Below are positions 2,385 through 52,090 of a stretch of DNA of 64,000 nt, one piece after another. A program made the position numbers and the translations under genes. How positions within the stretch are numbered: position 1 is the first letter of the stretch; every line of letters begins with the position of its first letter. This DNA is from a virus. The stretch lies in UHGV virus genome UHGV-0212524. One strand, 5' to 3'. A model generated the notes under the pieces. That model saw only the letters and a list, made by a program, of their open reading frames with translations. It was not told the DNA's origin and ran no database searches.

Positions 2385-5300
2385 ATGAGAAAACATTTTC
2401 AGCGTCACGCGATTAGCTACGCGTTATCGTTAGCTTACGGTCACCAATCCTTCGTTACCCGGAATACGGGAACGACTAACGACGCACATATCGATCATTA
2501 CATTCAAAACGAAGAAGGTGTTCTGTCGAATAACCGTCATTTCATCGCTGATACCATGGCGGAATACCAACCGAACGGTGACGCAACGACCGAGGGTCAG
2601 TCGTTACACATTATCGGTTATTGCCACATGTATATCGCAACAAAAGACGAAAGATGGTTAGATGCTGCGAAACACGCCTGGGATGCGTACAACACGTACT
2701 TCTACGCCGGACAGCCTATTCCGACAACACCCCAGCGTCGGATTTGTAACTGGTTAGTAAACGGGAAAGAACCGGTATTAGCACACTATCCTATTCACCC
2801 TACGGAACCTACCAACGGCGGGTATAAATGTGTTCCTGTAAGGTTTACAAATGGCCAATGTAAGATACCGCACGGTGCACCTTTCTGGGGAGAGTATTTG
2901 GATATCTGTACGTTTGCATATCGTGGCCACCCTGCCTGGGCCGCGATTAACGCAGATGTACAGATTATCAAGGAAGACAAAGAAGGGTCGATTAATTGGG
3001 AAGACGTTTTAACTCACGTTATTACTAATCCTGATAAGCCTTACGAAAGCACAGCTTGGGTCGATTGGCCAACACTGCTAAATAATACTACAGGTTACAC
3101 CCCGCTTTGGGGCGGCTCTGCAACAAAAGCTCCTAAACACGACGTTGACTGGATAATTGCCTGGACGGGTAACAAAATCCAGGATGGTGAAATTATTGAG
3201 ACGGGATTAGCAGACGCTGATAAAGGTACCGTACAGTTAAAAGACACACAGTTAAACGGTGTCTATTTAATTAACTACGCGGTAAAACTTCCTGTCGAAC
3301 ACGGCGGTTACGAATTTAAACGTAATGAGCCGTGGCACAACCGTCCGGTCCACACACCGTTCTTAGGGTCGAAAAACCAATACGGTAACGCCGCTGATGC
3401 TGAACTGTGGTTTATCGACGCCTGTTATTTGCTGTGGCGAATCACAGGTGAAGAGAAATACAAACAAGCATTAGACTGTGCTTTCTACACCGCACATGAG
3501 TACACGTATATTGATGCGACAGATAAATTCTTCCGTCGTTCTACCGCTGCGGATACACCGTTTACTGACGGTATTTCGTACGATTTCGATTACCCAGATA
3601 CCGTAAGTGCCACCTACGGCCGTGATGAGAATGGAGACATTACCATCCACGTGCCTGAAGCGGCGCAGCACTTTATGGAGCAAAAAGCGGTTAGGTTCAG
3701 GATTAACAAAGACTCTAAACTACGTGTCACGTACGGTGGAGTTTGTAAGAATGGCGATCCTGTCTACTGTAAAGTGATGGTGAACATTAACCCTGCGAAA
3801 GCTGATACCGAGGAGGTAAACTGGTACGGTTTAACCTTACCTCGGTCTACGGTAAATACCGTTAAACAGTACGATGTTGACTTAGGCCAACTTTCCCGTA
3901 TTACCACCCCAGAAGGGGGAGACTACCTGATAGCTGAAGCCCGTGCGTGTTCGGACTACGGTGGTTGTACGTGGGAAGAACGTTTTGAGGATAGCATTTA
4001 CGATGGTCGCGCGGGTACCGTGGTAGAAGCGGAATTTCCTGATGACAGTGCCGGGTTTATTATCGGGTTTTGGTTAACCGCTGAAGAGAAGGTAAAACCC
4101 GTTTCTATTGTTTACCGTGCAGACGCAGATTTTAACTTGCGTTTAGTCGACAGTGATAACTGGCTTTGGTGGTGGATGTTACCCAACACAAACAACGAAT
4201 GGCGTCAGGTAACGTTGAATCCGGATGAAGCCACACTTTCCGGTTATCAGCCAGACCACACAGACGCTGACCCTAAACCTTCAGCACCGAATTTCGATAA
4301 GGTGGATCAGGTCACGATTCTTCCTGACTCCACAGTTGACCATGCACACTTTGCTTACTATTGTGTTAACGATGTCCCACCGGTCTTTAATAAAGACGAT
4401 GGTTATATTTTAACCTTCCGTATTGCCTTACGCGGTGGTGCAGAGTTTGATGCAAAGGTGGGTGATTGTACGATTGTAGATTACCGATTGGATTCGTTAG
4501 CGTACTGTCCGGGTACGATACCGTTCACGAACAGCTACTTAGAAGGTTCAGAACAGTTAGGTGCTTGGCACGGGATGCCTTATCCAGGTTATCAGTATCC
4601 GTTTATGTACAGTATCCACAAAGACGACCGGTATAAGTTGTGGTTAGATAACCAGATTCAATTCCTGCACGATTCGCAGTTGGCTTACCAACAGCAAATT
4701 GGGGAATTAGGACCTGGTTGCGCAGCTTATATCTGGAACCGTTGGGACAACTACAGCTACGGAGAAGCGGATACCTGGACGACGTTCCATTGGGGTGATG
4801 ACCATCCTTGGGCAGGGTATCAGCCTCGCGCGTTTCATGCTGCGTGTCGGTGTTGGTACGAACTGAAACTGCGAGGTAAAGACGTTCCCGAGGCGTTAAC
4901 AACCTATATTGACAACTGGGTGAATTGGCTAGGTGGGTTTGTGGATCGGTTTAACGGCCACACTCCTAACGAGTTCCCTACAGCACCGGATAAAGCTGTT
5001 TGGGTGGAAAACGACTTCACCGCACATATGTGTGGGTTGTGGTTAGCAGGGTGTTGCTGGGCATTACTCGCCGGTGCAACGAATCCGAACTACGAAAAAG
5101 TGGTTAATGCGGCAATTAAGGAGTTAGGTGAAGGGTTTACGATTACCTCAATTCCGAATAAGCCGATTAATGGAGCGTGGTCTCCAGCCGCTCGAGAGTC
5201 TTCTGATAACGGAATGGCTTATGGGTTCTACACTGGAGAAGTGCTACGTGCGTTAGGTCTCTACGTTACTTATAAAACCTACGGACCCAACGCTAATATT

Positions 5301-5390
5301 TATCGTGACTTAGCGATTACTGACCACAGTCAAGCGGTCTTAGACGTTACGTTAACGATAGAAGATGTTCCATTAAAACCGGAGCAATAA
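2385..5390 (+). CDS. large virion protein, putative tail spike or receptor-binding protein (1001 aa)
   Basis: 1001-aa ORF directly after, and in frame with, the adaptor-like gene; Trp/Tyr-rich; no catalytic motif recognised. Confidence 0.5.
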   Translation: MRKHFQRHAISYALSLAYGHQSFVTRNTGTTNDAHIDHYIQNEEGVLSNNRHFIADTMAEYQPNGDATTEGQSLHIIGYCHMYIATKDERWLDAAKHAWDAYNTYFYAGQPIPTTPQRRICNWLVNGKEPVLAHYPIHPTEPTNGGYKCVPVRFTNGQCKIPHGAPFWGEYLDICTFAYRGHPAWAAINADVQIIKEDKEGSINWEDVLTHVITNPDKPYESTAWVDWPTLLNNTTGYTPLWGGSATKAPKHDVDWIIAWTGNKIQDGEIIETGLADADKGTVQLKDTQLNGVYLINYAVKLPVEHGGYEFKRNEPWHNRPVHTPFLGSKNQYGNAADAELWFIDACYLLWRITGEEKYKQALDCAFYTAHEYTYIDATDKFFRRSTAADTPFTDGISYDFDYPDTVSATYGRDENGDITIHVPEAAQHFMEQKAVRFRINKDSKLRVTYGGVCKNGDPVYCKVMVNINPAKADTEEVNWYGLTLPRSTVNTVKQYDVDLGQLSRITTPEGGDYLIAEARACSDYGGCTWEERFEDSIYDGRAGTVVEAEFPDDSAGFIIGFWLTAEEKVKPVSIVYRADADFNLRLVDSDNWLWWWMLPNTNNEWRQVTLNPDEATLSGYQPDHTDADPKPSAPNFDKVDQVTILPDSTVDHAHFAYYCVNDVPPVFNKDDGYILTFRIALRGGAEFDAKVGDCTIVDYRLDSLAYCPGTIPFTNSYLEGSEQLGAWHGMPYPGYQYPFMYSIHKDDRYKLWLDNQIQFLHDSQLAYQQQIGELGPGCAAYIWNRWDNYSYGEADTWTTFHWGDDHPWAGYQPRAFHAACRCWYELKLRGKDVPEALTTYIDNWVNWLGGFVDRFNGHTPNEFPTAPDKAVWVENDFTAHMCGLWLAGCCWALLAGATNPNYEKVVNAAIKELGEGFTITSIPNKPINGAWSPAARESSDNGMAYGFYTGEVLRALGLYVTYKTYGPNANIYRDLAITDHSQAVLDVTLTIEDVPLKPEQ

Positions 5391-5468: not shown

Positions 5469-8400
5469 ATGGCTAAAGCGGTAAAGAAAATTCGTTTACA
5501 CGATTTACGTCCATACACCGGGGATATAGGTGAAGGTGTTTTACTTTTTTCCAAGGATGAGAAAGATTATAAGTTACCTGTCCGTGAGATCGTTGCAGAT
5601 ATTGACACCGTACGTAATGCGGTGTCTGATGCACAAACAGCAGCAACACAATCACAAGAAGCTGCAACTCAGGCTACACAAGCAAAGAATTTAGCAGAAA
5701 CAGCAAAACAACAAACTGACACCGTTGCGGCTACAGTTGCTCAACAAGCGCAAACTGTAACCGAAAAAGCAACTGAAGTCGGTACAAAACACACTGAAGT
5801 GTTAGCCGCGAAAACGGCGGTAGATACCCAGGTTGTGTCCGTTAATGAGAAAGCGCAAGCGGTAGCGGCAAGCGAGGCCAACGTCACACAAGCGGTGACT
5901 ACCGTTACGAAGAAAGCAGAAACTGTTGCCACACAAGCCGGTCAAGTCGAACAGTCGCTTACGGCAGTTAACGAAGCTGTCGCGTCGGTAGAGTCGTCAA
6001 AAGCCGCTGTAGAAGCTACAGCAACGCAAGTTACCACAGACAAAGAAACCGCAGAGAATGCGGCAACGCGTTCTGAGGCAGCGGCTAAGCGTGCAGAAGA
6101 AATCGCTGCAAAAGGTAACGTTGATGCAACAACGACCAGTAAAGGTATCGTTAGACTTAATAATACCTTAAGCAGTGACTCTGTTACTGAAGCGGCTACG
6201 CCGTCAACGGTTAAGCAGTTAAATGAAGATTTGCAGTTAAAAGCAAACCGTCACAACCCAACTTTTACCGGTGTGGTAAAAGCACCAACACCTGCTTCGG
6301 ATTCTAACGACACGAGCGTCTCAACGACCGCATGGGTACGGCAAGCGATTGCTGAATTAGTGGACTCTTCACCCGAGACGTTAGATACGTTATCAGAAAT
6401 TGCAGCTGCGTTAGGAAACGATCCTAACTTTGCGACAACGATGACGAACCAACTCGCGGGTAAACAGCCGTTAAGTCCGTTACTGACAGCGATTGCCGCA
6501 GTCACCACCGCTGCAAACAAACTCCCTTACTTTACCGGTAGTAATCAGGTAGGGTTAGCGGATTTCACCTCGACTGCGCGTGATTTGTTAGCGAAAGGGT
6601 CGACGGCAGATATCATTAACTTCCTGGGTTTGAAAACCACTGTTGATAAAGCTGCGGGTGCTATGCAACGCAGTTCTAACGGTGCCGATATTCCAGATAA
6701 AGTCACCTTCGCGAAGAACATCGGGTTGTCAGCAGAGACGTATTTGAAGTTTAATGGGGAAATGGCAGTAGATGCGGATATCAACACCTTCGGCCCAGTC
6801 GAAGCGTTTATGGGTGTCTGGTCTAAAGCCACGTCTACGAATGCAACAATTGCAAAGAACTTCCCGGAAGACGATGCAGTTGGTTACTTAGAGGTATTCA
6901 AAGCAGGTAACTACAGCGGAAGCCAACGTTTTACCATACGTAACGGTAACGTCTATACTCGTCGTTTAACAGGAACCTGGAACGGTACTAACGGCCCTTG
7001 GTCGCCCTGGAGAATGACAACTACCGCGAACCGTCCGCTCTCCACCACTATTGACCTTAACACTTTAGGTGGTGTTGAACACATGGGTCAGTGGCGTAAC
7101 TCCAGTTCTTCTCTTGCGACGTTCGATCGTCATTATCCCGAAGAAGGTGGTAATGCTCAAGGTGTATTAGAAGTAATGGAAGGTGGTCTCTACGGACGTA
7201 TGCAACGTTACACCACTCGTCGTGGTACGATGTATGTCCGTGGGTTGACTGCGACTTGGGATGCGTCTAATCCACAGTGGGAAGATTGGATTCAAGTTGG
7301 GTATCAGGTAGACGGTGCCTACTATAAGGGTAGCTTTAATGACTTAACTAAACCTGGTCGTTTTAGTGTTACCGGTGAGGCTACTGACGGTCCGTTAACA
7401 GACTCTGCTGGCGCAACCTTGTTAGGTGTTTGCGAAGTTACCTTACGCTTAGACGGTTCAGGCGTTGAACAAAATTATACCACATACGGTACAGGCGCAA
7501 CTACGAAAGGTCGCAAGTTCCAACGAATTCGTACAGGAAACGCCTGGAGCGAATGGCGAGAGATTTTCACATCCTATTCACTCCCGTTGGCTTTAGGGAT
7601 CGGTGGGGTTGCTGCCAAGGTCGATCCGTTAGACTGGCAAACCTTCGATTTCGTTCCTGGCCAGATGATAAGTACACCGTTGAATACCATGAAAAACATT
7701 CCTGCGGGAATGGATTGGGGTGTTATTGACGGTAACTTGGTCAGTATTCTCGTAGGGGCGTCAGAGGACACCGGTACTGGTCGGAGTATGTTGGTCTGGC
7801 GCGGTACAGTGTCTACTGCTAACTATCGCTTCTTTGCAGTACGTATCGCTGGCGAGAAGGGTAGCCGTACGATTACGCCACGACAGATGCCTGTGTTGAA
7901 CGCAGCCCACACTTGGGCAGAGAAACAGACCTTTGCAAAAGGGTTAGCAGGTGAGTTAACCGGCAATGCTTCAACCGCCACTAAGCTCCAGACTGCGCGT
8001 AGAATTGGCGGGGTCGCTTTCGACGGCAGCGGCGACGTTAACCTCCCAGGTGTTAACCAACAAGGTAATCAAAACACCACAGGTAACGCCGCGACAGCCA
8101 CTAAACTTCAAACCGCCAGAAATATTAACGGTGTGAAATTCGATGGCTCTGGAGACATCAATATCAACACCTTGGTAGGTCGTGGACGGGTTACCGCTCT
8201 GACCGGGTCGAACAAGGGTACACCTGGTATCCAGATGTACGAAGTTTACAATAACGGTTATCCAACCGCCTATGGTAACTTGCTGCACTTAGGTGGTGCT
8301 AATGCGCTAGGCGAAGGTGAGTTGTTAATTGGTTGGTCGGGCACGAGTGGTGCACACGCACCCGTTTATATTCGTAGTCGACGCGATACGGCTGATGCGC

Positions 8401-9935
8401 CGTGGTCAGATTGGGCACAAGTTTATACTGCCCGTGACAGTATTCCTGGTGTAAATACCACCGGTAATCAGGATACTACTGGCAATGCCGCTACCGCGAC
8501 GAAACTGAAAACCGCTCGCAGAATCGGCGGCGTTACCTTTGACGGTACTGGGGATATCAATTTACCGGGGGTTAACCAGCAAGGCAACCAGAATACGACA
8601 GGTAATGCAGCGACCGCTACTAAGTTACAAACAGCACGTAAGATCGGCGGTGTTAACTTTGACGGTTCGCAAGACATTAGTCTGCCCGGTGTAAACCAGA
8701 CGGGTAATCAGTCGACTACCGGAAACGCAGCCACGGCAACAAAGTTGCAGACAGCGCGTACCATTAACGGTATCGCATTTGACGGTACTAGAAATATATC
8801 GTTAGGGCCTGCCGATATAGGTTGTCCGGCTTCGCCCACTGGTTGGTTGGAGACTGGTAAAGACGGCGGCGCAATAACTACAGCACAGCTAGTGACGTTA
8901 TTGCAAAATAACGGCGCGTTTACCACAAAATCATGGGTTGCTCGCTGTGCATGGGCTTATGCTGCTAGTGCGTCCATACCGAACAGCGAGACGGGTTGTG
9001 GTGTTATTCCGTTAGCTGGGGCTGTTATAGAAGTGATTAGTAACAGCGCAAACAACTACACGATCCGTATAACGACCCCCACAACGACGAGCGTCGGCGG
9101 CGCACTCACTAATGCGGAGTTTATCTACGTAAATAACGGTGATGCTTACTCACCAGGTTGGCGTCGCGCTTACAATACGAAAAACAAGCCAACTGCTGCG
9201 GATGTTGGGGCGTTGCCATTATCTGGCGGTCAATTGAATGGTGTGCTGACGCTGCAAAATGTGAGTCAGCCTCTCAAGACGCCGGGTGGCGGCATTCTGG
9301 CAAATGATGGAAATTTATACATCAATAAGTCAGGATTTGCAGGCTGGATTGATGCGCTGTTTTTGAAGAACAGCGGCGGTACTGTCACTGGCGATTTAAC
9401 GGTTAACGGTAAACTGGTTACGAAGTATGCTGATTTCCGAATCGCTTACGGTAGCTGCGGTTTCATTTTACGTAATGATGGTGCCAATACCTATTTCTTA
9501 GTAACCGACTCCGGACAAGCCGCAACGGGTTCCTGGAACGGACTACGTCCGTTGTATTTTAATAACTCTAACGGTCAAGTAACCTTTGGTCATAACATTT
9601 CTAGCAACGGTAACGGTTCGTTTAACGACGTACAGATTCGTTCTGACCGTCGCAACAAACGTAATCTGGTGAAGCTGGATAAGGCTTTGGATCGGTTAGA
9701 AGCGCTTACCGGCTATCTGTACGAGGTTCAACATCCAGACGACGGTTGGAACACTTCGGTAGGTCTAATTGCTCAAGACGCATTAGAAGCGTTACCTGAA
9801 CTTGTGTCTGAGGATGATGATGCCATTTCAGGCGAAAAACGTTTACGTCTAAACTACAATGGCGTTATTGCGCTGTTAGTAGAGGGTATGAAAGCGTTGC
9901 GTCAAGAGGTTAACGAAATTAAAGGAAGATCCTAA
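5469..9935 (+). CDS. long tail fibre protein with tandem fibre repeats and C-terminal intramolecular chaperone domain (1488 aa)
   Basis: Ala/Thr/Gln-rich region; about six repeats of GNAATATKLQTAR.IGGV.FDGSGD.NLPGVNQQGNQNTT; near the C-terminus SDRRNKRNLVKLD matches the Ser-Asp-x-Arg-x-Lys autocleavage signature of endosialidase-type (peptidase S74) chaperone domains. Confidence 0.85.
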   Translation: MAKAVKKIRLHDLRPYTGDIGEGVLLFSKDEKDYKLPVREIVADIDTVRNAVSDAQTAATQSQEAATQATQAKNLAETAKQQTDTVAATVAQQAQTVTEKATEVGTKHTEVLAAKTAVDTQVVSVNEKAQAVAASEANVTQAVTTVTKKAETVATQAGQVEQSLTAVNEAVASVESSKAAVEATATQVTTDKETAENAATRSEAAAKRAEEIAAKGNVDATTTSKGIVRLNNTLSSDSVTEAATPSTVKQLNEDLQLKANRHNPTFTGVVKAPTPASDSNDTSVSTTAWVRQAIAELVDSSPETLDTLSEIAAALGNDPNFATTMTNQLAGKQPLSPLLTAIAAVTTAANKLPYFTGSNQVGLADFTSTARDLLAKGSTADIINFLGLKTTVDKAAGAMQRSSNGADIPDKVTFAKNIGLSAETYLKFNGEMAVDADINTFGPVEAFMGVWSKATSTNATIAKNFPEDDAVGYLEVFKAGNYSGSQRFTIRNGNVYTRRLTGTWNGTNGPWSPWRMTTTANRPLSTTIDLNTLGGVEHMGQWRNSSSSLATFDRHYPEEGGNAQGVLEVMEGGLYGRMQRYTTRRGTMYVRGLTATWDASNPQWEDWIQVGYQVDGAYYKGSFNDLTKPGRFSVTGEATDGPLTDSAGATLLGVCEVTLRLDGSGVEQNYTTYGTGATTKGRKFQRIRTGNAWSEWREIFTSYSLPLALGIGGVAAKVDPLDWQTFDFVPGQMISTPLNTMKNIPAGMDWGVIDGNLVSILVGASEDTGTGRSMLVWRGTVSTANYRFFAVRIAGEKGSRTITPRQMPVLNAAHTWAEKQTFAKGLAGELTGNASTATKLQTARRIGGVAFDGSGDVNLPGVNQQGNQNTTGNAATATKLQTARNINGVKFDGSGDININTLVGRGRVTALTGSNKGTPGIQMYEVYNNGYPTAYGNLLHLGGANALGEGELLIGWSGTSGAHAPVYIRSRRDTADAPWSDWAQVYTARDSIPGVNTTGNQDTTGNAATATKLKTARRIGGVTFDGTGDINLPGVNQQGNQNTTGNAATATKLQTARKIGGVNFDGSQDISLPGVNQTGNQSTTGNAATATKLQTARTINGIAFDGTRNISLGPADIGCPASPTGWLETGKDGGAITTAQLVTLLQNNGAFTTKSWVARCAWAYAASASIPNSETGCGVIPLAGAVIEVISNSANNYTIRITTPTTTSVGGALTNAEFIYVNNGDAYSPGWRRAYNTKNKPTAADVGALPLSGGQLNGVLTLQNVSQPLKTPGGGILANDGNLYINKSGFAGWIDALFLKNSGGTVTGDLTVNGKLVTKYADFRIAYGSCGFILRNDGANTYFLVTDSGQAATGSWNGLRPLYFNNSNGQVTFGHNISSNGNGSFNDVQIRSDRRNKRNLVKLDKALDRLEALTGYLYEVQHPDDGWNTSVGLIAQDALEALPELVSEDDDAISGEKRLRLNYNGVIALLVEGMKALRQEVNEIKGRS
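7951..8820 (+). repeat. tandem in-frame tail-fibre repeats (about 40 codons each, two blocks)
   Basis: Repeated nucleotide and protein units inside the fibre gene; the same repeats generate look-alike antisense ORFs. Confidence 0.8.
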
Positions 9936-10717
9936 TGGCAGTTGTCGGCGTAGGTGGTTGGATTGGTTCTTCAGCAAAAGCTGAAACTGGTAACGATTGG
10001 ATGTCTGGCGCGATGCGCACACTTGGTGTGCCGGTTCCAGGCTGGATGTCGCAATTGGCGGGAAAATCAAAAGAGGTTCAGTATTCGATCGGGGCTAATC
10101 ACAATTACAATAAAGATACGCTTATTAACTATTTACGTTCTATAGGCTCTAATGCTGTCGTTGTGACCATTACAGGGGATTTAGTGTCTTATAGTAGCGG
10201 GGTTCCTTGTTTAGAATTCCCTAGCAATCTTCCAAATTCGTATATTACACTCATCATCAATCCTGGGGTTACAGTATACGGCAGAGGAGGCAACGGCGGT
10301 TCTAACTCACCAGGCGGTGCAGGTGGAACCGCAATACAGAACGGAATAGGAAACAGACTGCGTATAACCAACCGTGGCGCTATTGCCGGAGGCGGTGGCG
10401 GCGGTGGCGGCGGTAACAGGGGTAGACTAATATTTGGTGGTGGCGGTGGTCGCCCATTCGGTGCTGGTGGGTCTTCCTCACATATGAGTTCCGGTGCAGC
10501 TGCTGGTACTATTTCCGCTCCTGGTAGAGGATCTGTTGGTGAGGGGTCTCTTAGTGCATATACAGGCGGTTCGGGTGGTAATGTCGGTGCTGCTGGAGGA
10601 AGATGTAATACTCATGGTAACGGTACAGAATATAACGGCGGAGCCGCTGGTGCAGCCGTTAGAGGTAATGCGCCAAGATGGGACGCAGTAGGTGCAATAT
10701 ATGGTTCACGTGTTTAA
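9935..10717 (+). CDS. glycine-rich protein, possibly fibre-associated (260 aa)
   Basis: TAATG stop/start overlap with the fibre gene; poly-Gly tracts (GGGGGGGGGNRG); N-terminus paralogous to the next gene. Confidence 0.55.
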   Translation: MAVVGVGGWIGSSAKAETGNDWMSGAMRTLGVPVPGWMSQLAGKSKEVQYSIGANHNYNKDTLINYLRSIGSNAVVVTITGDLVSYSSGVPCLEFPSNLPNSYITLIINPGVTVYGRGGNGGSNSPGGAGGTAIQNGIGNRLRITNRGAIAGGGGGGGGGNRGRLIFGGGGGRPFGAGGSSSHMSSGAAAGTISAPGRGSVGEGSLSAYTGGSGGNVGAAGGRCNTHGNGTEYNGGAAGAAVRGNAPRWDAVGAIYGSRV

Positions 10718-10777
10718 TTTGAAAAAGTATGGGGATACTCACTCCCCTCCTCACACCTTTCAAAAGGATAGGGTATA

Positions 10778-11281
10778 ATGGGGGTAGCATCTGGATGGGT
10801 CGGTTCTTCGGCCAAGAACGAAACGGGCGAACAATGGATGAGTGCTGCTGGTAGTAAATTAGGATTGGGTAGACCTTTTATGATGAGTCAAATGGTGGGC
10901 CGATCTCTTGGCTGTAAAATCGCAACTGCTGCATATAGCGATTCAATGGCTAAATTTTGGGGTGCGGTGGGACCAAACTGGCCGTTAGCGCAGAAAAATA
11001 AAGGGACTATTCAGAATCCTGGTAGCTGCGGCGTAGGCACACTTATTGGTATCCAACTACTATTGATCACATTGGCTGCTGATGCAAAACCAAGTTTAGC
11101 GGTCTATTTACAAGGTGGGAGAGCTTCTAACATCACCGTAAATCTAGGCGGCAACACTTGTACGGTAGCCTATCAGCAGGTTATTAATGGTCAACATTAT
11201 TACTGGACCTCTAACATTAGCACTGCTTTCCAAAACGTGATGAAATCAACCGGCACATTAAGAGATTTGAAGATTAGTTAA
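10778..11281 (+). CDS. hypothetical protein, N-terminal paralog of the glycine-rich protein (167 aa)
   Basis: MGVASGWVGSSAKNETGEQWMSAAG versus MAVVGVGGWIGSSAKAETGNDWMSGA. Confidence 0.55.
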   Translation: MGVASGWVGSSAKNETGEQWMSAAGSKLGLGRPFMMSQMVGRSLGCKIATAAYSDSMAKFWGAVGPNWPLAQKNKGTIQNPGSCGVGTLIGIQLLLITLAADAKPSLAVYLQGGRASNITVNLGGNTCTVAYQQVINGQHYYWTSNISTAFQNVMKSTGTLRDLKIS

Positions 11282-11310
11282 TAATTTTCAAGCGAATGTG
11301 CTTGAAAACG

Positions 11311-11428
11311 TAATCGGGGGGGGGGGTGAAATGTTTTTAGCCACCATTTTATGTCTCCCCAAGCATAGGAGGTAACCATACGTGGAACATTTCACGCCTG
11401 TTTGGGCGTTAACTTAAGTAAAAAACGA
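11311..11428 (+). repeat. degenerate duplicate of the leader and 5-prime end of gene 11521, with a G11 homopolymer
   Basis: About 95 nt near-identical to 11453..11555, including the ggaggtaaccatacgtggaaca start region; the copy encodes only MEHFTPVWALT then a stop; G-run at 11316..11326. Confidence 0.7.
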
Positions 11429-11520
11429 TCACTCGAATCTGCTATAAAAAGCAATCGGGGGGTGGTGAAATGTTTATAGACAACTTTTTATGTCTCTCCA
11501 ATCATAGGAGGTAACCATAC

Positions 11521-12033
11521 GTGGAACAATTCACGCCTGATTTGTCGTTAACTTCACTTAACATGGTTATTTCACTGGTTAACCATGACCTCCAGCTCGA
11601 CCTGCAAGAGAACGAGGTTGAAGTCAGCGACGTAAAGACCAGTAACGAAATGGATCGTGACACCACTGCTGTTGTAAAGATAAAACGTCCTGGTAACAGA
11701 ACGTTACAAATCTATTACAACCGTTTAACCGCAGAGCGGTGGTTAAACCAGCAACCTATTCTGGTAAAGGTTTCCGGTAATGGTTTTACCGCACACGATC
11801 TAATCGACGGAATTAACGCGGCTTGCGGTTGTAATTTACAACCCGACGATCTTACCGACGAATCATTTACCGTAGGGAAAGACGCTGTAACGTTACAGGT
11901 TTCACCCAACTCGTTAGGTTATAAAGGCCAATTCTCCGTTCTGGTTTTCGGTAACGACGAAGAAGCCGCTGTAGTAAAAGACAACGATTTAATCGTTACC
12001 GCAGATAATCGCGTCTTAACCTTTGGTGGTTAA
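11521..12033 (+). CDS. hypothetical protein, paralog family A (170 aa, GTG start)
   Basis: Paralog of the 1394..1957 product; RBS ggagg upstream. Confidence 0.6.
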   Translation: MEQFTPDLSLTSLNMVISLVNHDLQLDLQENEVEVSDVKTSNEMDRDTTAVVKIKRPGNRTLQIYYNRLTAERWLNQQPILVKVSGNGFTAHDLIDGINAACGCNLQPDDLTDESFTVGKDAVTLQVSPNSLGYKGQFSVLVFGNDEEAAVVKDNDLIVTADNRVLTFGG

Positions 12034-12191
12034 TAGTGGCTGAACTGGTAGGAAAGGTACGCATTCGCGAGCTACCGACACTTTCAGAAGACATCACTGG
12101 TGTGGTGGTGTTAGCGTCTATTGCCTGTTAAGATCGTTATTACGCATCTTACAGGGACAACGCTTTCTCAGAACGGAATGAAATAAATATT

Positions 12192-12236
12192 AGGTAGTAG
12201 GGGCTAAGCCCCTACTACCTTTCTTTTTTATTTTTT
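12192..12236 (+). terminator. rho-independent terminator
   Basis: ggtagtaggggc taag cccctactacc followed by tttcttttttattttttct. Confidence 0.75.
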
Positions 12237-12283
12237 CTCAGATATATATTACCTAGGGGAGAGCGAAATTTACATTCGCTCTA
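12237..12283 (+). promoter_or_regulatory. conserved promoter-like motif plus downstream hairpin (copy 1 of 4)
   Basis: ctcagatatatattacctagg followed by the stem gagcgaa / ttcgctc. Confidence 0.5.
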
Positions 12284-15845: not shown

Positions 15846-15856
15846 TAAAAATAATT

Positions 15857-15897
15857 TCAGATATATATTACCTAGGTGAGAGTTCAGCTACTCTCAC
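15857..15897 (+). promoter_or_regulatory. conserved promoter-like motif plus hairpin (copy 2 of 4)
   Basis: tcagatatatattacctaggtgagagttcagctactctcac; the downstream leader is nearly identical to copy 4. Confidence 0.5.
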
Positions 15898-15927
15898 TTA
15901 ACTAAAACCATTTTAGGAGCATATACC

Positions 15928-16422
15928 ATGAACTTCACTAGACTTGATTACACTAACGAATTAGTTGACAAAGAAAAATACAAATTCACCGTTGACTTGG
16001 GTTACGGATTACTGGACGTAGAAAAAGATGTTCTGCACAAAGAATTCCGTGAGCAGTTCGGTGCTTTGTTCTGCGCAGGTTTCCGCAGAAACACTATTGA
16101 TATCGGTTACAGCGCAACAGCGTATACCGATGAAGAAATGTTTAAGCTGGTAACACAGATTATCGGAACGCGTGGAGCTAATCGTCTTAATTATTCCAAC
16201 GAACTTGTTTCGAAAGAGCATTACAAGTTCACCGTTAGACTACCTGCACACCTCACAGAAGAAGATAAGAACATCCTCTACAAAGCCCTCCAAACCGAAT
16301 TCGGTAAATCGCTCAAAGTAGGGTTCCGTAGTCGTAGTATCGATATCGGAATTAGTGTGGATGTGTGTAGTGACGATGACCTTTACGAATTAGTTTCGGA
16401 AGTTATCGGAAAACATCTCTAA
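15928..16422 (+). CDS. hypothetical protein with internal tandem duplication (164 aa)
   Basis: Two roughly 80-aa halves: LDYTNELVDKEKYKFTV...FRRNTIDIGYS... and LNYSNELVSKEHYKFTV...FRSRSIDIGIS... Confidence 0.6.
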   Translation: MNFTRLDYTNELVDKEKYKFTVDLGYGLLDVEKDVLHKEFREQFGALFCAGFRRNTIDIGYSATAYTDEEMFKLVTQIIGTRGANRLNYSNELVSKEHYKFTVRLPAHLTEEDKNILYKALQTEFGKSLKVGFRSRSIDIGISVDVCSDDDLYELVSEVIGKHL

Positions 16423-19497: not shown

Positions 19498-20346
19498 ATG
19501 TCTCTTACGTCAAAACAGAAACTGCTAAAACTCATCAACACTGAAAACAATATTAGTCCACCGTTGACTTTCAGTGATGTTGATATCGGAGAACCTACCG
19601 GTACTGGGGTTGATACCCAGGTGGTTCTGACCTCTAAACTCAAAGGCGATGAGTCTACTACTTTAACAGTGACTTACCACCGTCGTAATTTACCTGACTA
19701 CTTAACCGGTGAGTTGGTATTCGGTAACGACAGTGTGGTAACCGCATCAGATTTGCTTAATGCGATCAACGCAAAATACAGCCTAAATATTTTACCCTCG
19801 GATATCGTTGACGCAAAAGTTGAAGGCGAAACCCATCAGCTTACCGCTAACGAGAAATCTTACGAGTGGTGCGGTGTAGTAACGCTTACGCTGCATGATC
19901 CTATTGACCTGACTGAACTTTTACCAGTTACTCAATTAGAGAATCTGGTAGAGTATCCGTCCACTAAGAAAGGTAACGCTGCGGTTTATTCACACCCGAT
20001 TGATTTCACCGCAGAAAAAGATTACCTTGACCCGATTACTATCAACGACACCGTAGACTTGGTAGAGTTAGCCTCTAAACTGGATGGCGTCGTTGATGAG
20101 AAATGGGTAAGTGTACCTAAGAACGCGGCTAACAACCTGTACGGTGCTAAAGTTATTTACGATGGTCCAACCGCAGGTTACGAAGGCGCAAATACGAAGT
20201 TCACTCGTGTGTTGGTGCTAACGCTCAGCCCGCTGTGTTCTAACCTGACCGGTAACCTGTTAATTCACTTTAACGGTACCGATCGTCCGAAGTCGAAGAT
20301 TGAATTAGCACAGACTAATCCGGTCTTACCGGGATTCTTAGATTAA
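19498..20346 (+). CDS. hypothetical protein, distant paralog family A (282 aa)
   Basis: Segment SDLLNAINAKYSLNILPSDI resembles the ...NLQP.DL... segment of family A. Confidence 0.5.
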   Translation: MSLTSKQKLLKLINTENNISPPLTFSDVDIGEPTGTGVDTQVVLTSKLKGDESTTLTVTYHRRNLPDYLTGELVFGNDSVVTASDLLNAINAKYSLNILPSDIVDAKVEGETHQLTANEKSYEWCGVVTLTLHDPIDLTELLPVTQLENLVEYPSTKKGNAAVYSHPIDFTAEKDYLDPITINDTVDLVELASKLDGVVDEKWVSVPKNAANNLYGAKVIYDGPTAGYEGANTKFTRVLVLTLSPLCSNLTGNLLIHFNGTDRPKSKIELAQTNPVLPGFLD

Positions 20347-24043: not shown

Positions 24044-24052
24044 GTAAGTTAA

Positions 24053-24078
24053 ATCGGGGGGGGTGACCTCCCCCGATA
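24053..24078 (+). terminator. hairpin, weak terminator
   Basis: atcgggggg / cccccgat inverted repeat with a G8 run; poor T-tract. Confidence 0.35.
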
Positions 24079-46870: not shown

Positions 46871-47069
46871 AGCTACTCTCCAGTTAAAGAAAGGAAGGAC
46901 TGTATCGTGTTACAACCAAAGCATAAGATAGCTCCTCCCCGAAGGGAGGAGTGAGTGCGCGAAAAAAGTGGCCTGCTTAACTAAACGATGAGGTTTAAGA
47001 AAAGTGTTGATAAGAAGCTTACCAACGTCAGGTCACAATATATAATACCAGCGTAAGAAAAAGGGGAAA

Positions 47070-51626: not shown

Positions 51627-51647
51627 TCTCTAACATTAAAAATAATC

Positions 51648-51688
51648 TCAGATATATATTACTTAGGTGAGAGTACAAAAGCTCTCAC
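51648..51688 (+). promoter_or_regulatory. conserved promoter-like motif plus hairpin (copy 4 of 4)
   Basis: tcagatatatattacttaggtgagagtacaaaagctctcac; the downstream leader cttaactaaaaccattttaggag is shared with copy 2. Confidence 0.5.
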
Positions 51689-51718
51689 TTAACTAAAACC
51701 ATTTTAGGAGTATTAACG

Positions 51719-52090
51719 ATGAAAAGCGAATTGTTCAAAGACCCGTTTGTTGTATTACTGATCGTTACTCGCGCTGCCACTAACCCAGAAGACCTGAAAC
51801 GTTTACTTGCCAACGAAGCATACCTTATCGAACAGCGTGACGCGCAGTTAGCCAAACCACACGCTGAAGGCCAGGTGAAAGACCTTATCTCTATTTTCCG
51901 TAACGAAGAATGGCGTAAAAACAACCAGCTGTCCGACAACCTGACGGTTGCAATTGCAAAACTCTTGACACTGTTCAATCTTGACAAAGACATTAACCAA
52001 AGCCTTTCTACAGAAGAACGTCTGGAGATGATAAGAGGTATCGGAGATAGCTATACGCAGATTAAAGCATTCCCCAACACAGTTATTTAA
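51719..52090 (+). CDS. hypothetical protein (123 aa)
   Basis: Intact ORF downstream of promoter-like copy 4. Confidence 0.55.
   Translation: MKSELFKDPFVVLLIVTRAATNPEDLKRLLANEAYLIEQRDAQLAKPHAEGQVKDLISIFRNEEWRKNNQLSDNLTVAIAKLLTLFNLDKDINQSLSTEERLEMIRGIGDSYTQIKAFPNTVI

Follow-up and report, generated by a model that had tools for sequence, protein, structure and literature searches.

Why does the region immediately upstream of a tail-module gene occur twice in this genome, and from where was the additional copy derived? The question arises within a window of 64,000 nucleotides, the whole stretch of DNA that was analysed, at the 239-nt gap (11282-11520) between two genes of the same strand, an adhesin gene and the gene A2. 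What lies at this adhesin/A2 junction is a tandem duplication, imperfect and specific to the lineage, whose unit measures ~140 bp. It is most probably (a probability of about 0.78) the scar of an out-of-register exchange of an adhesin cassette between two related phage genomes. The surrounding features are as follows.

1394-1957: A1, a DUF7941 paralog
1872-2384: short fibre
2385-5390: tail protein
5469-9935: long fibre of 1488 aa, with Gp34_trimer and S74 chaperone domains
9935-10717: T-even-type gp38 adhesin, the first of two
10778..11281, plus strand: second gp38-like adhesin, 167 aa (Pfam PF21721; PHROG 1121 'tail fiber adhesin')
11293-11572: duplicated leader
11521..12033, plus strand: A2, 170 aa, with a DUF7941 N-terminal part (Pfam PF25613; PHROG 2935/1037 'virion structural protein')
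12036..12186, plus strand: fibre-gene deletion remnant, consisting of 31 N-terminal codons and the out-of-frame C-terminal end of a 206-aa short tail-fibre gene
12192-12220: strong terminator
12242: early-promoter-like motif

The phage from which the window derives is a jumbo phage of the SPN3US/phiKZ type. Large paralogous virion proteins typical of this group are encoded in it, and the best tblastn matches of A2 among deposited phages are SPN3US-like, at ~30% amino-acid identity; nucleotide searches among deposited phages revealed no close relative. Additionally, the motif TATATATTAC, which resembles the AT-rich early-promoter motifs described for the SPN3US/phiKZ group (PMC7598289), is present in three copies in the window. 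The first adhesin gene shares 78-83% nucleotide identity with gp38 of RB49/JSE, and in the second adhesin Gp38_N is the only recognisable domain, followed by a variable C-terminal part. A protein identical to A2 is encoded on 7 other contigs. No solved structure related to A2 was found; a full-length DUF7941 paralog at 19498-20346 matches phiKZ gp127 in entry 9xqd. In SPN3US the short fibre and then the tail protein come after the A homolog, and therefore the DUF7941 protein and the fibre look like one module. A2 is the first gene of a decayed module of this kind. The 206-aa fibre gene is intact directly after A2 in four of the related loci introduced below (L008, L013, L018 and L019), and its deletions vary in size between relatives. 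Thus the locus accumulates recombination and deletion scars, the fibre remnant being a second scar beside the duplicated leader.

A repeat search of the 64-kb window found only two families of direct repeats of 40 nt or longer, and the leader duplication is one of them. It consists of two members, 11318-11422 and 11457-11561, which are 105 nt long, 87% identical and spaced by 139. In a gapped MAFFT alignment the homology stretches further, to ~11293-11426 against ~11434-11565, giving a duplicated unit of ~139-141 nt. The left end of the unit lies in the loop of a hairpin 3' of the adhesin gene, and its content is a hairpin, a ribosome-binding site (RBS), a start codon and the first ten codons of A2. 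The two tandem copies, both on the plus strand, comprise the following elements.

11293..11431, plus strand: copy A, a pseudo-leader, with the 3' half of the A/U hairpin, the G-tract hairpin, RBS, GTG and a decayed 11-codon remnant
11285..11308, plus strand: A/U-rich hairpin just 3' of the adhesin stop codon, TTTTCAAGC-GAATGT-GCTTGAAAA
11316..11326, plus strand: G11 homopolymer, forming the 5' arm and an unpaired 5' overhang of the leader hairpin
11318..11360, plus strand: leader hairpin of copy A, with 7 G paired with UCUCCCC and the inner stem GUGAAAUG/CAUUUUAU
11367..11417, plus strand: RBS AGGAGG (11367-11372), GTG (11382) and the remnant ORF VEHFTPVWALT with its stop (11382-11417)
11434..11572, plus strand: copy B, the working leader, with a diverged spacer remnant, a weakened hairpin, an intact RBS (11506-11511), GTG (11521) and the first A2 codons

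An identical 26-mer, CATAGGAGGTAACCATACGTGGAACA, is contained in both copies and spans the Shine-Dalgarno sequence AGGAGG, a 9-nt spacer and GTG; overall, copies A and B mismatch at 13% of positions. All elements of the tandem leader duplication in the original prediction, RBS and GTG included, are present where it placed them. The repeat itself stands, and its identity and unit length are corrected, from ~90 percent to 87% and from ~95-118 nt to ~139-141 nt. The upstream copy does carry the G11 run, and the tract of copy B differs, being interrupted as GGGGGGTGG at 11457-11465, i.e. G6TG2. The 11-codon ORF was likewise confirmed in the upstream copy, beginning with GTG at 11382 and closed by a premature TAA stop at 11415-11417. 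Two adjacent direct copies with a similarity far above chance, one of them holding a truncated and non-functional gene start, are what a recombination scar should display. Between the copies lies a junction filler of 18 nt, AAGTAAAAAACGATCACT, made up of the last 16 nt of copy A (11416-11431) and of 11432-11433; no source for it was found in the window or in loci L001-L010.

For comparison, 14 independent related loci were recovered by exact look-ups, pattern scans and BLAST from Logan and ENA assemblies, IMG/VR contigs of 151-225 kb, two GenBank metagenome contigs and other sources. Among them are two circular records, complete at ~222 kb and entered as plasmids of E. coli 98232 and of Enterobacter ludwigii 51A:C, as well as L018, a Salmonella Chester assembly (GCA_044191855.1), and L019, the Logan accession ERR10789688. 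The leader between the adhesin gene and A2 is single in 14/14 of these loci, and therefore the duplication is a derived state, known to date from this genome only. An intact extra paralog, which the prediction had proposed to look for in related genomes, occurs at this position in none of the 14. With a unit that includes the 5' end of the gene 11521-12033 and with relatives that all have one leader, the proposed scar of a partial duplication is supported.

A feature private to one genome might also be an artefact of assembly, with the alleles of two strains placed in tandem or a repeat mis-joined. The A/B junction sequence is absent from IMG/VR and from GTDB genomes, the duplication is known from the window only, the adhesin protein of the window is absent from the gene-position index, and the region is variable between strains and contains a long homopolymer. 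However, the copies diverge by 13%, each has substitutions that are absent from the 14 relatives, and the sequence at the joint is unique, whereas concatenated natural alleles should match natural alleles and be joined via shared sequence. If a chimeric assembly path crossed over at k-mers common to both alleles, it would yield one copy rather than two. Moreover, the pattern makes biological sense, one copy having a decayed coding part and the other a decayed hairpin. An artefact is therefore considered extremely improbable.

The origin of the two copies can be approached from the closest relatives of their flanks. A search with the second adhesin protein of the window revealed that L018 and L019 encode it (P0001) at 99% identity. 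From 10777 to 11415, which covers adhesin, spacer and copy A, the window is 97.3% identical to L018 and 98.0% identical to L019, and the alignment goes no further than 11415, where the homology of copy A ends. Over 10900-11300, in the C-terminal part of the adhesin, the identity to L018/L019 is 98-100%, compared with 65-86% for the other relatives that align; relatives with the other adhesin type fail to align there. In the body of A2 (11700-12000) the identity is 83% to L018/L019, 99% to L002/L003/L008 and 94-99% to L013/L017. The two flanks have different closest relatives, as a recombinant joint should, with a breakpoint resolved only to 11415-11700 because most relatives, L018/L019 among them, are 94-100% identical over the stretch 11500-11700. 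The duplication joint, at 11416-11433, falls at the start of this interval, and the case for its coincidence with the crossover is strong but circumstantial.

The identity of each copy follows from its surroundings. In L018/L019 a single leader of the consensus type and an intact A2 come after this adhesin allele; therefore, copy A is the leader of the donor together with the first 10-11 codons of the donor A2, truncated at the joint. Ahead of copy B stands a diverged form of the 3' half of the spacer that is typical after adhesin genes of the 167-aa type, and so this copy represents the recipient's own junction. This spacer remnant is the same as the copy A spacer at 18/23 aligned positions and differs at 5/23. 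The leader allele of copy B, from the right-hand parent, carries TGTTTATAGACAACTTTTTATGTCTCTCC, and no match to an allele of this type was found in IMG/VR or GTDB genomes.

Under the preferred reading, an adhesin cassette of ~640 bp from an L018/L019-like phage would have replaced the resident allele. The left crossover would have taken place within the conserved Gp38_N coding part, and the right crossover would have been out of register by one leader length. In this manner the donor spacer, hairpin, RBS, GTG and 10-11 A2 codons may have been joined via the 18-nt filler to the recipient side, that is, to its own spacer remnant, its leader and its intact A2. Afterwards, complementary decay would have set in, with copy A retaining the hairpin and copy B retaining the translation start and the gene. 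Both this crossover mechanism and the neutrality of the duplication are what we infer from the arrangement. A recombination between family-A paralogs, as the prediction had put it, was rejected: A1 (1394-1957), the only close paralog of A2 in the window, has 35% protein identity to it and an unrelated terminator as its upstream region, and no further leader copy exists in the window. Both copies are alleles of one locus.

The substitutions in the two copies are distributed in opposite ways. In copy A, comparison with L019 gives 4 substitutions across the remnant ORF (34 nt) and 3 across the adjoining adhesin gene (504 nt), an excess for which Fisher's test yields p = 4e-4, and p = 0.04 with a rough synonymous-site proxy as the reference. 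Three of the four changes fall inside 6 nt, suggesting that one complex event at the joint, rather than gradual decay, is a possible cause. The leader hairpin of copy A folds at -20.2 kcal/mol (z -1.8), compared with -24.5 kcal/mol (z -4.6) for the single-copy consensus, and a private A to C change at 11344 gives it a bigger loop. The private changes of copy A are absent from L018/L019, the closest sampled genomes of the donor type. With its RBS and GTG, copy A should still yield a peptide of 11 residues, ending 103 nt before the real start.

In copy B, compared with 11 relatives, 8 changes private to the window are located in 11434-11497, none in 11498-11783, and 3 in the 513-nt A2 CDS. The 8 changes sit in the spacer remnant and the hairpin, and the region of the RBS and start has none. 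Of the hairpin nucleotides 5/43 are changed, versus 3/536 in RBS and CDS (p = 9e-5; p = 0.02 against the proxy), and at -12.8 kcal/mol this is the weakest of the leader hairpins. The five hairpin changes could have been inherited with an unsampled allele instead of arising by decay after the duplication; this stays possible because diverged leader alleles do exist (L013 and L017). The loss of the coding part on one side and of the hairpin on the other suggests that one hairpin is enough and that its adjacency to the RBS is not needed.

Could the duplication instead have arisen in place, in one genome, by replication slippage or template switching, with both copies diverging afterwards? The copies lie side by side, the unit has its left end within a hairpin loop, and the region holds a pair of hairpins and a G11 tract, all of which would favour slippage of the polymerase; private changes also occurred in both copies against an otherwise near-invariant leader. 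Yet the product of slippage should begin as identical and cleanly joined copies, whereas the spacers here differ at 5 of 23 positions and are accompanied by the filler. Slippage also leaves unexplained why a patch of the L018/L019 type ends exactly at the end of copy A and why the flanks have different closest relatives. An origin in place is thus unlikely, and the exchange of an adhesin cassette between two genomes remains preferred.

The border at which this exchange appears to have happened is itself a conserved element. From AATCG to GTG, the leader is nearly invariant in 12/14 relatives. The consensus hairpin pairs 7 G with UCUCCCC and GUGAAAUGUU with AACAUUUUAC around a 7-nt loop (energy and z-score as given above), and rare variants in the 3' arm retain pairing by wobble, with C/U opposite G and A/G opposite U. 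The remaining two relatives, L013 and L017, have a strongly diverged leader allele with a hairpin of the same architecture closed by G5/C5; that of L013 folds together with the RBS region at -28.8 kcal/mol, and that of L017 was judged by inspection. Covariation was seen at 0/17 pairs, with 95% of cells paired and sequences too similar to one another, and Rfam gave no match to 11282-11520 at E values up to 1. The predicted hairpin is accordingly supported by thermodynamics and by its persistence in two diverged alleles, not by covariation. The homology between cassettes of the 167-aa and 170-aa adhesin types begins at AATCG(G)n; therefore, the leader is the left edge of the A2 block and the natural right border of the adhesin cassette. 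The A/U-rich hairpin further upstream (-9.8 kcal/mol, z -4.0), in whose loop the unit begins, is found in every relative with the 167-aa adhesin type.

Several known functions were considered for the leader hairpin. Intercistronic stem-loops in polycistronic mRNAs serve as elements of RNA stability and processing. The predicted hairpin is similar to them in being stable, free of a U tract, placed between co-oriented cistrons and conserved among relatives, the L013/L017 alleles included; it differs in that neither covariation nor an Rfam family supports it. As an intrinsic terminator it was rejected: CCAAUCAUAGGAGG follows instead of a U tract, and the terminator scan is silent there while it recovers the true terminator at 12192-12220. 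A scan for host sigma-70 promoters yielded no more hits than shuffled controls.

The mini-ORF of the leader, MFLANILCLPNHRR followed by a stop, was also rejected as a gene. All alleles keep the frame open, but the L009 allele carries a frameshift, most variants are non-synonymous, and the start region of the mini-ORF lies within the hairpin.

A late promoter of the phiKZ type at TTTTATGTCTC was rejected as well. Such promoters have the form 5'-T(-3)ATG(+1)-3', of which phiKZ strictly requires each of the four bases (PMC7598289). Both window copies have TATG within the 3' arm of their hairpin, upstream of a late-type structural gene as in the known system, and TATG or a similar sequence occurs, in part, in L003, L004, L006, L013, L017, L018 and L019. 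However, it is broken in 7/14 relatives, reading TACG in six and TGCG in one; the motif is not enriched in the window and is too short to be specific.

The G tract of copy A requires separate consideration. G11 is the longest homopolymer in the window, followed by T9 and G8, and ~0.01 runs of G or C of at least 11 would be expected by chance in 64 kb (our estimate from base composition). Tract lengths in the window and its relatives are listed below.

Window: G11 in copy A; G6TG2 in copy B
Nine relatives, uninterrupted: 13, 11, 10 (four times) and 9 (three times) G
Five relatives, interrupted: GAG7 (one) and GGAG5 (four)

Two near-identical genomes, L002 with G11 and L005 with G10, are one G apart. 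Such differences would be the behaviour expected of a slippage-prone run, and may include homopolymer sequencing error. The proneness of G11 to slippage that had been predicted agrees with the range of 9-13 G in nine relatives, to which sequencing error may contribute. For the same reason, the count of 11 G is provisional and should be distrusted without reads. At most ~7 G pair with the 3' arm, and the GGAG5 alleles fold equally well or better; extra Gs should therefore only lengthen the unpaired 5' overhang. The Gs beyond 7 are thus a slippage-prone overhang with no predicted effect.

Tracts of this kind may nevertheless act as switches. PolyG tracts occur in the receptor-binding genes of Campylobacter phages. 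Contingency loci have also recently been reported as simple repeats in T2/T4 and as hypermutable homopolymers in coliphages (PMC12633550). The present locus resembles these in its long G run, in a length that differs between near-identical genomes (with sequencing error as a possible contribution) and in its position at a host-range locus. It differs in that the known cases frameshift an ORF, whereas the tract here is non-coding, outside genes of meaningful length, and has no predicted effect on the hairpin. No coding frame and no definable promoter that the tract could switch was found, so that a change in length toggles neither a frame nor promoter spacing. Tandem leaders, the 11-codon upstream ORF or the G tract might still tune or phase-vary the DUF7941 gene. 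The tract lies within a conserved hairpin ~20 nt upstream of a strong RBS and varies among close relatives, and the remnant ORF retains its RBS and GTG intact. Against such regulation, the Gs outside the paired part should be inert, the duplication is missing from every relative, the promoter was not definable in scans, and the TATG that would have to serve as one is altered in seven relatives. Functional regulation by the duplicated leader is hence very improbable.

A related proposal, that the G-tract hairpin leader is a functional cis-element of exchangeable tail-fibre modules and more than a passive border, is likewise very doubtful. In one variant, the hypermutable G run might double as a GGAGG-like RBS and tune the translation of the DUF7941 protein; such a GGAGG-like run does lie 4-8 nt upstream of a mini-ORF of 10-14 codons, which ends in the A2 RBS. 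In the other, the G run might stall replication and set the border of the cassette as a recombination hot spot. If the cis-element proposal were true, the duplication would represent a natural separation of the hairpin function, in copy A, from the translation-start function, in copy B.

The proposed out-of-register cassette exchange has a well-known precedent in T4-superfamily phages, in which gp38 adhesins and distal tail fibres are exchanged as modular cassettes (PMC3157838). Common to both is a variable receptor-binding segment that lies between conserved segments, here the Gp38_N coding part and the leader of the next gene, and is swapped between related genomes; the adhesins here are members of the Pfam families GP38/Gp38_N. 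The present case differs in that the phage is a jumbo phage of the SPN3US/phiKZ type and not a member of Straboviridae, and that the outcome is a direct duplication of 140 bp with a truncated ORF, not a clean homologous replacement. As a scar the duplication is genuine but unremarkable, one more case of a familiar type of event, and it reveals no new mechanism.

The practical value of these findings lies in annotation and strain typing. The true start of A2 is the GTG at 11521, supplied by copy B, and the 11-codon ORF should not be called a gene. For the biology of the group, the locus offers a clean and datable example of the movement of a host-range cassette in a jumbo-phage lineage without a cultured close relative. 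The cassettes exchanged are T-even-type gp38 adhesins, and the unit of exchange ends at the conserved hairpin leader. Moreover, the two halves have diverged in a complementary manner, a hint that hairpin and translation start serve functions that can be separated.

The features of the window considered in this part are displayed below, in order of position.

9935-10717 and 10778-11281: tandem pair of T-even-type gp38 adhesin genes in this SPN3US-like jumbo phage
11330-11374 and again 11469-11513: mini-ORF of the duplicated leader, running from ATG to TAA (MFLANILCLPNHRR, then stop)
12036-12186: remnant of a short tail-fibre gene (intact length 206 aa), left by deletion directly after A2, the DUF7941 virion protein gene
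12242-12252, 15861-15871 and 51652-51662, weaker at 47038 and 48068: motif (A)TATATATTAC, resembling an early promoter
24056-24063: G8, the second-longest G run, inside a terminator-like hairpin (ATCGGGGGGGGTGACCTCCCCCGAT, 24052-24077)

The mini-ORF of the leader is probably not a gene. Its start is buried by the leader hairpin, and its stop codon sits within the ribosome-binding site of A2. The frame is open across all alleles, with a length of 10-14 codons, and is frameshifted in the related locus L009; in the GGAG5 alleles, the G-rich tract is spaced from the ATG as a ribosome-binding site would be. The T run of the hairpin loop is T7 in L018, a Salmonella Chester locus (L018 4545-4560), versus T5 in every other consensus-type leader, and the 3' arm of the L009 hairpin contains one additional T. 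Therefore, homopolymer length noise extends beyond the G tract. The hairpin around the G8 run begins with AATCG(G)nTGA words shared with the duplicated leader.

The genes on both sides of the leader can also be compared with those of the relatives. The 2 adhesin genes lie downstream of a fibre gene whose 1488-aa product has Gp34_trimer and S74 chaperone domains. Of the pair, the first carries PF05268 and PF21721 and shares 78-83% nucleotide identity with RB49/JSE gp38, and only one adhesin gene exists at the corresponding place in L018 and L019. Behind A2, the fibre remnant consists of 31 N-terminal codons (VAELVGKVRIRELPTLSEDITGVVVLASIAC, then stop) and an out-of-frame C-terminal end (LPVKIVITHLTGTTLSQNGMK, then stop). 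The 206-aa gene is intact in L008, L013, L018, and L019, and the deletions found in other relatives differ in size; thus, the module of DUF7941 and short fibre decayed independently, several times. Of the 276 profile positions, A2 and its paralog A1 match no more than the N-terminal ~150-165. Additionally, a full-length DUF7941 paralog of 282 aa (19498-20346) matches the PDB entry 9xqd chain named PHIKZ127 (E = 2.6e-5), which ties the family to a phiKZ virion protein that has been placed structurally.

The motif (A)TATATATTAC was found 5 times, compared to 1 expected. It heads blocks of small + strand genes and is followed by a conserved hairpin and a ribosome-binding site; the 87-nt repeat 15846-15932 / 51637-51723 is a pair of leaders carrying it. 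Similar AT-rich early-promoter motifs have been described for RNAP-encoding jumbo phages (PMC7598289).

No close relative was found in the deposited-phage collection by nucleotide searches. Two close relatives stand in the databases as 'plasmids', complete and circular, with a length of about 222 kb: L016 (NZ_CP173450.1) comes from E. coli isolated from urine, and L017 (NZ_CP134650.1) from Enterobacter ludwigii isolated from a gull. Others occur in isolate assemblies of Salmonella (e.g., L018, GCA_044191855.1), Shigella, and E. coli. Taken together, these records suggest that the phage is maintained in a carrier state or by pseudolysogeny, or that its lineage is uncultured and travels with isolates.
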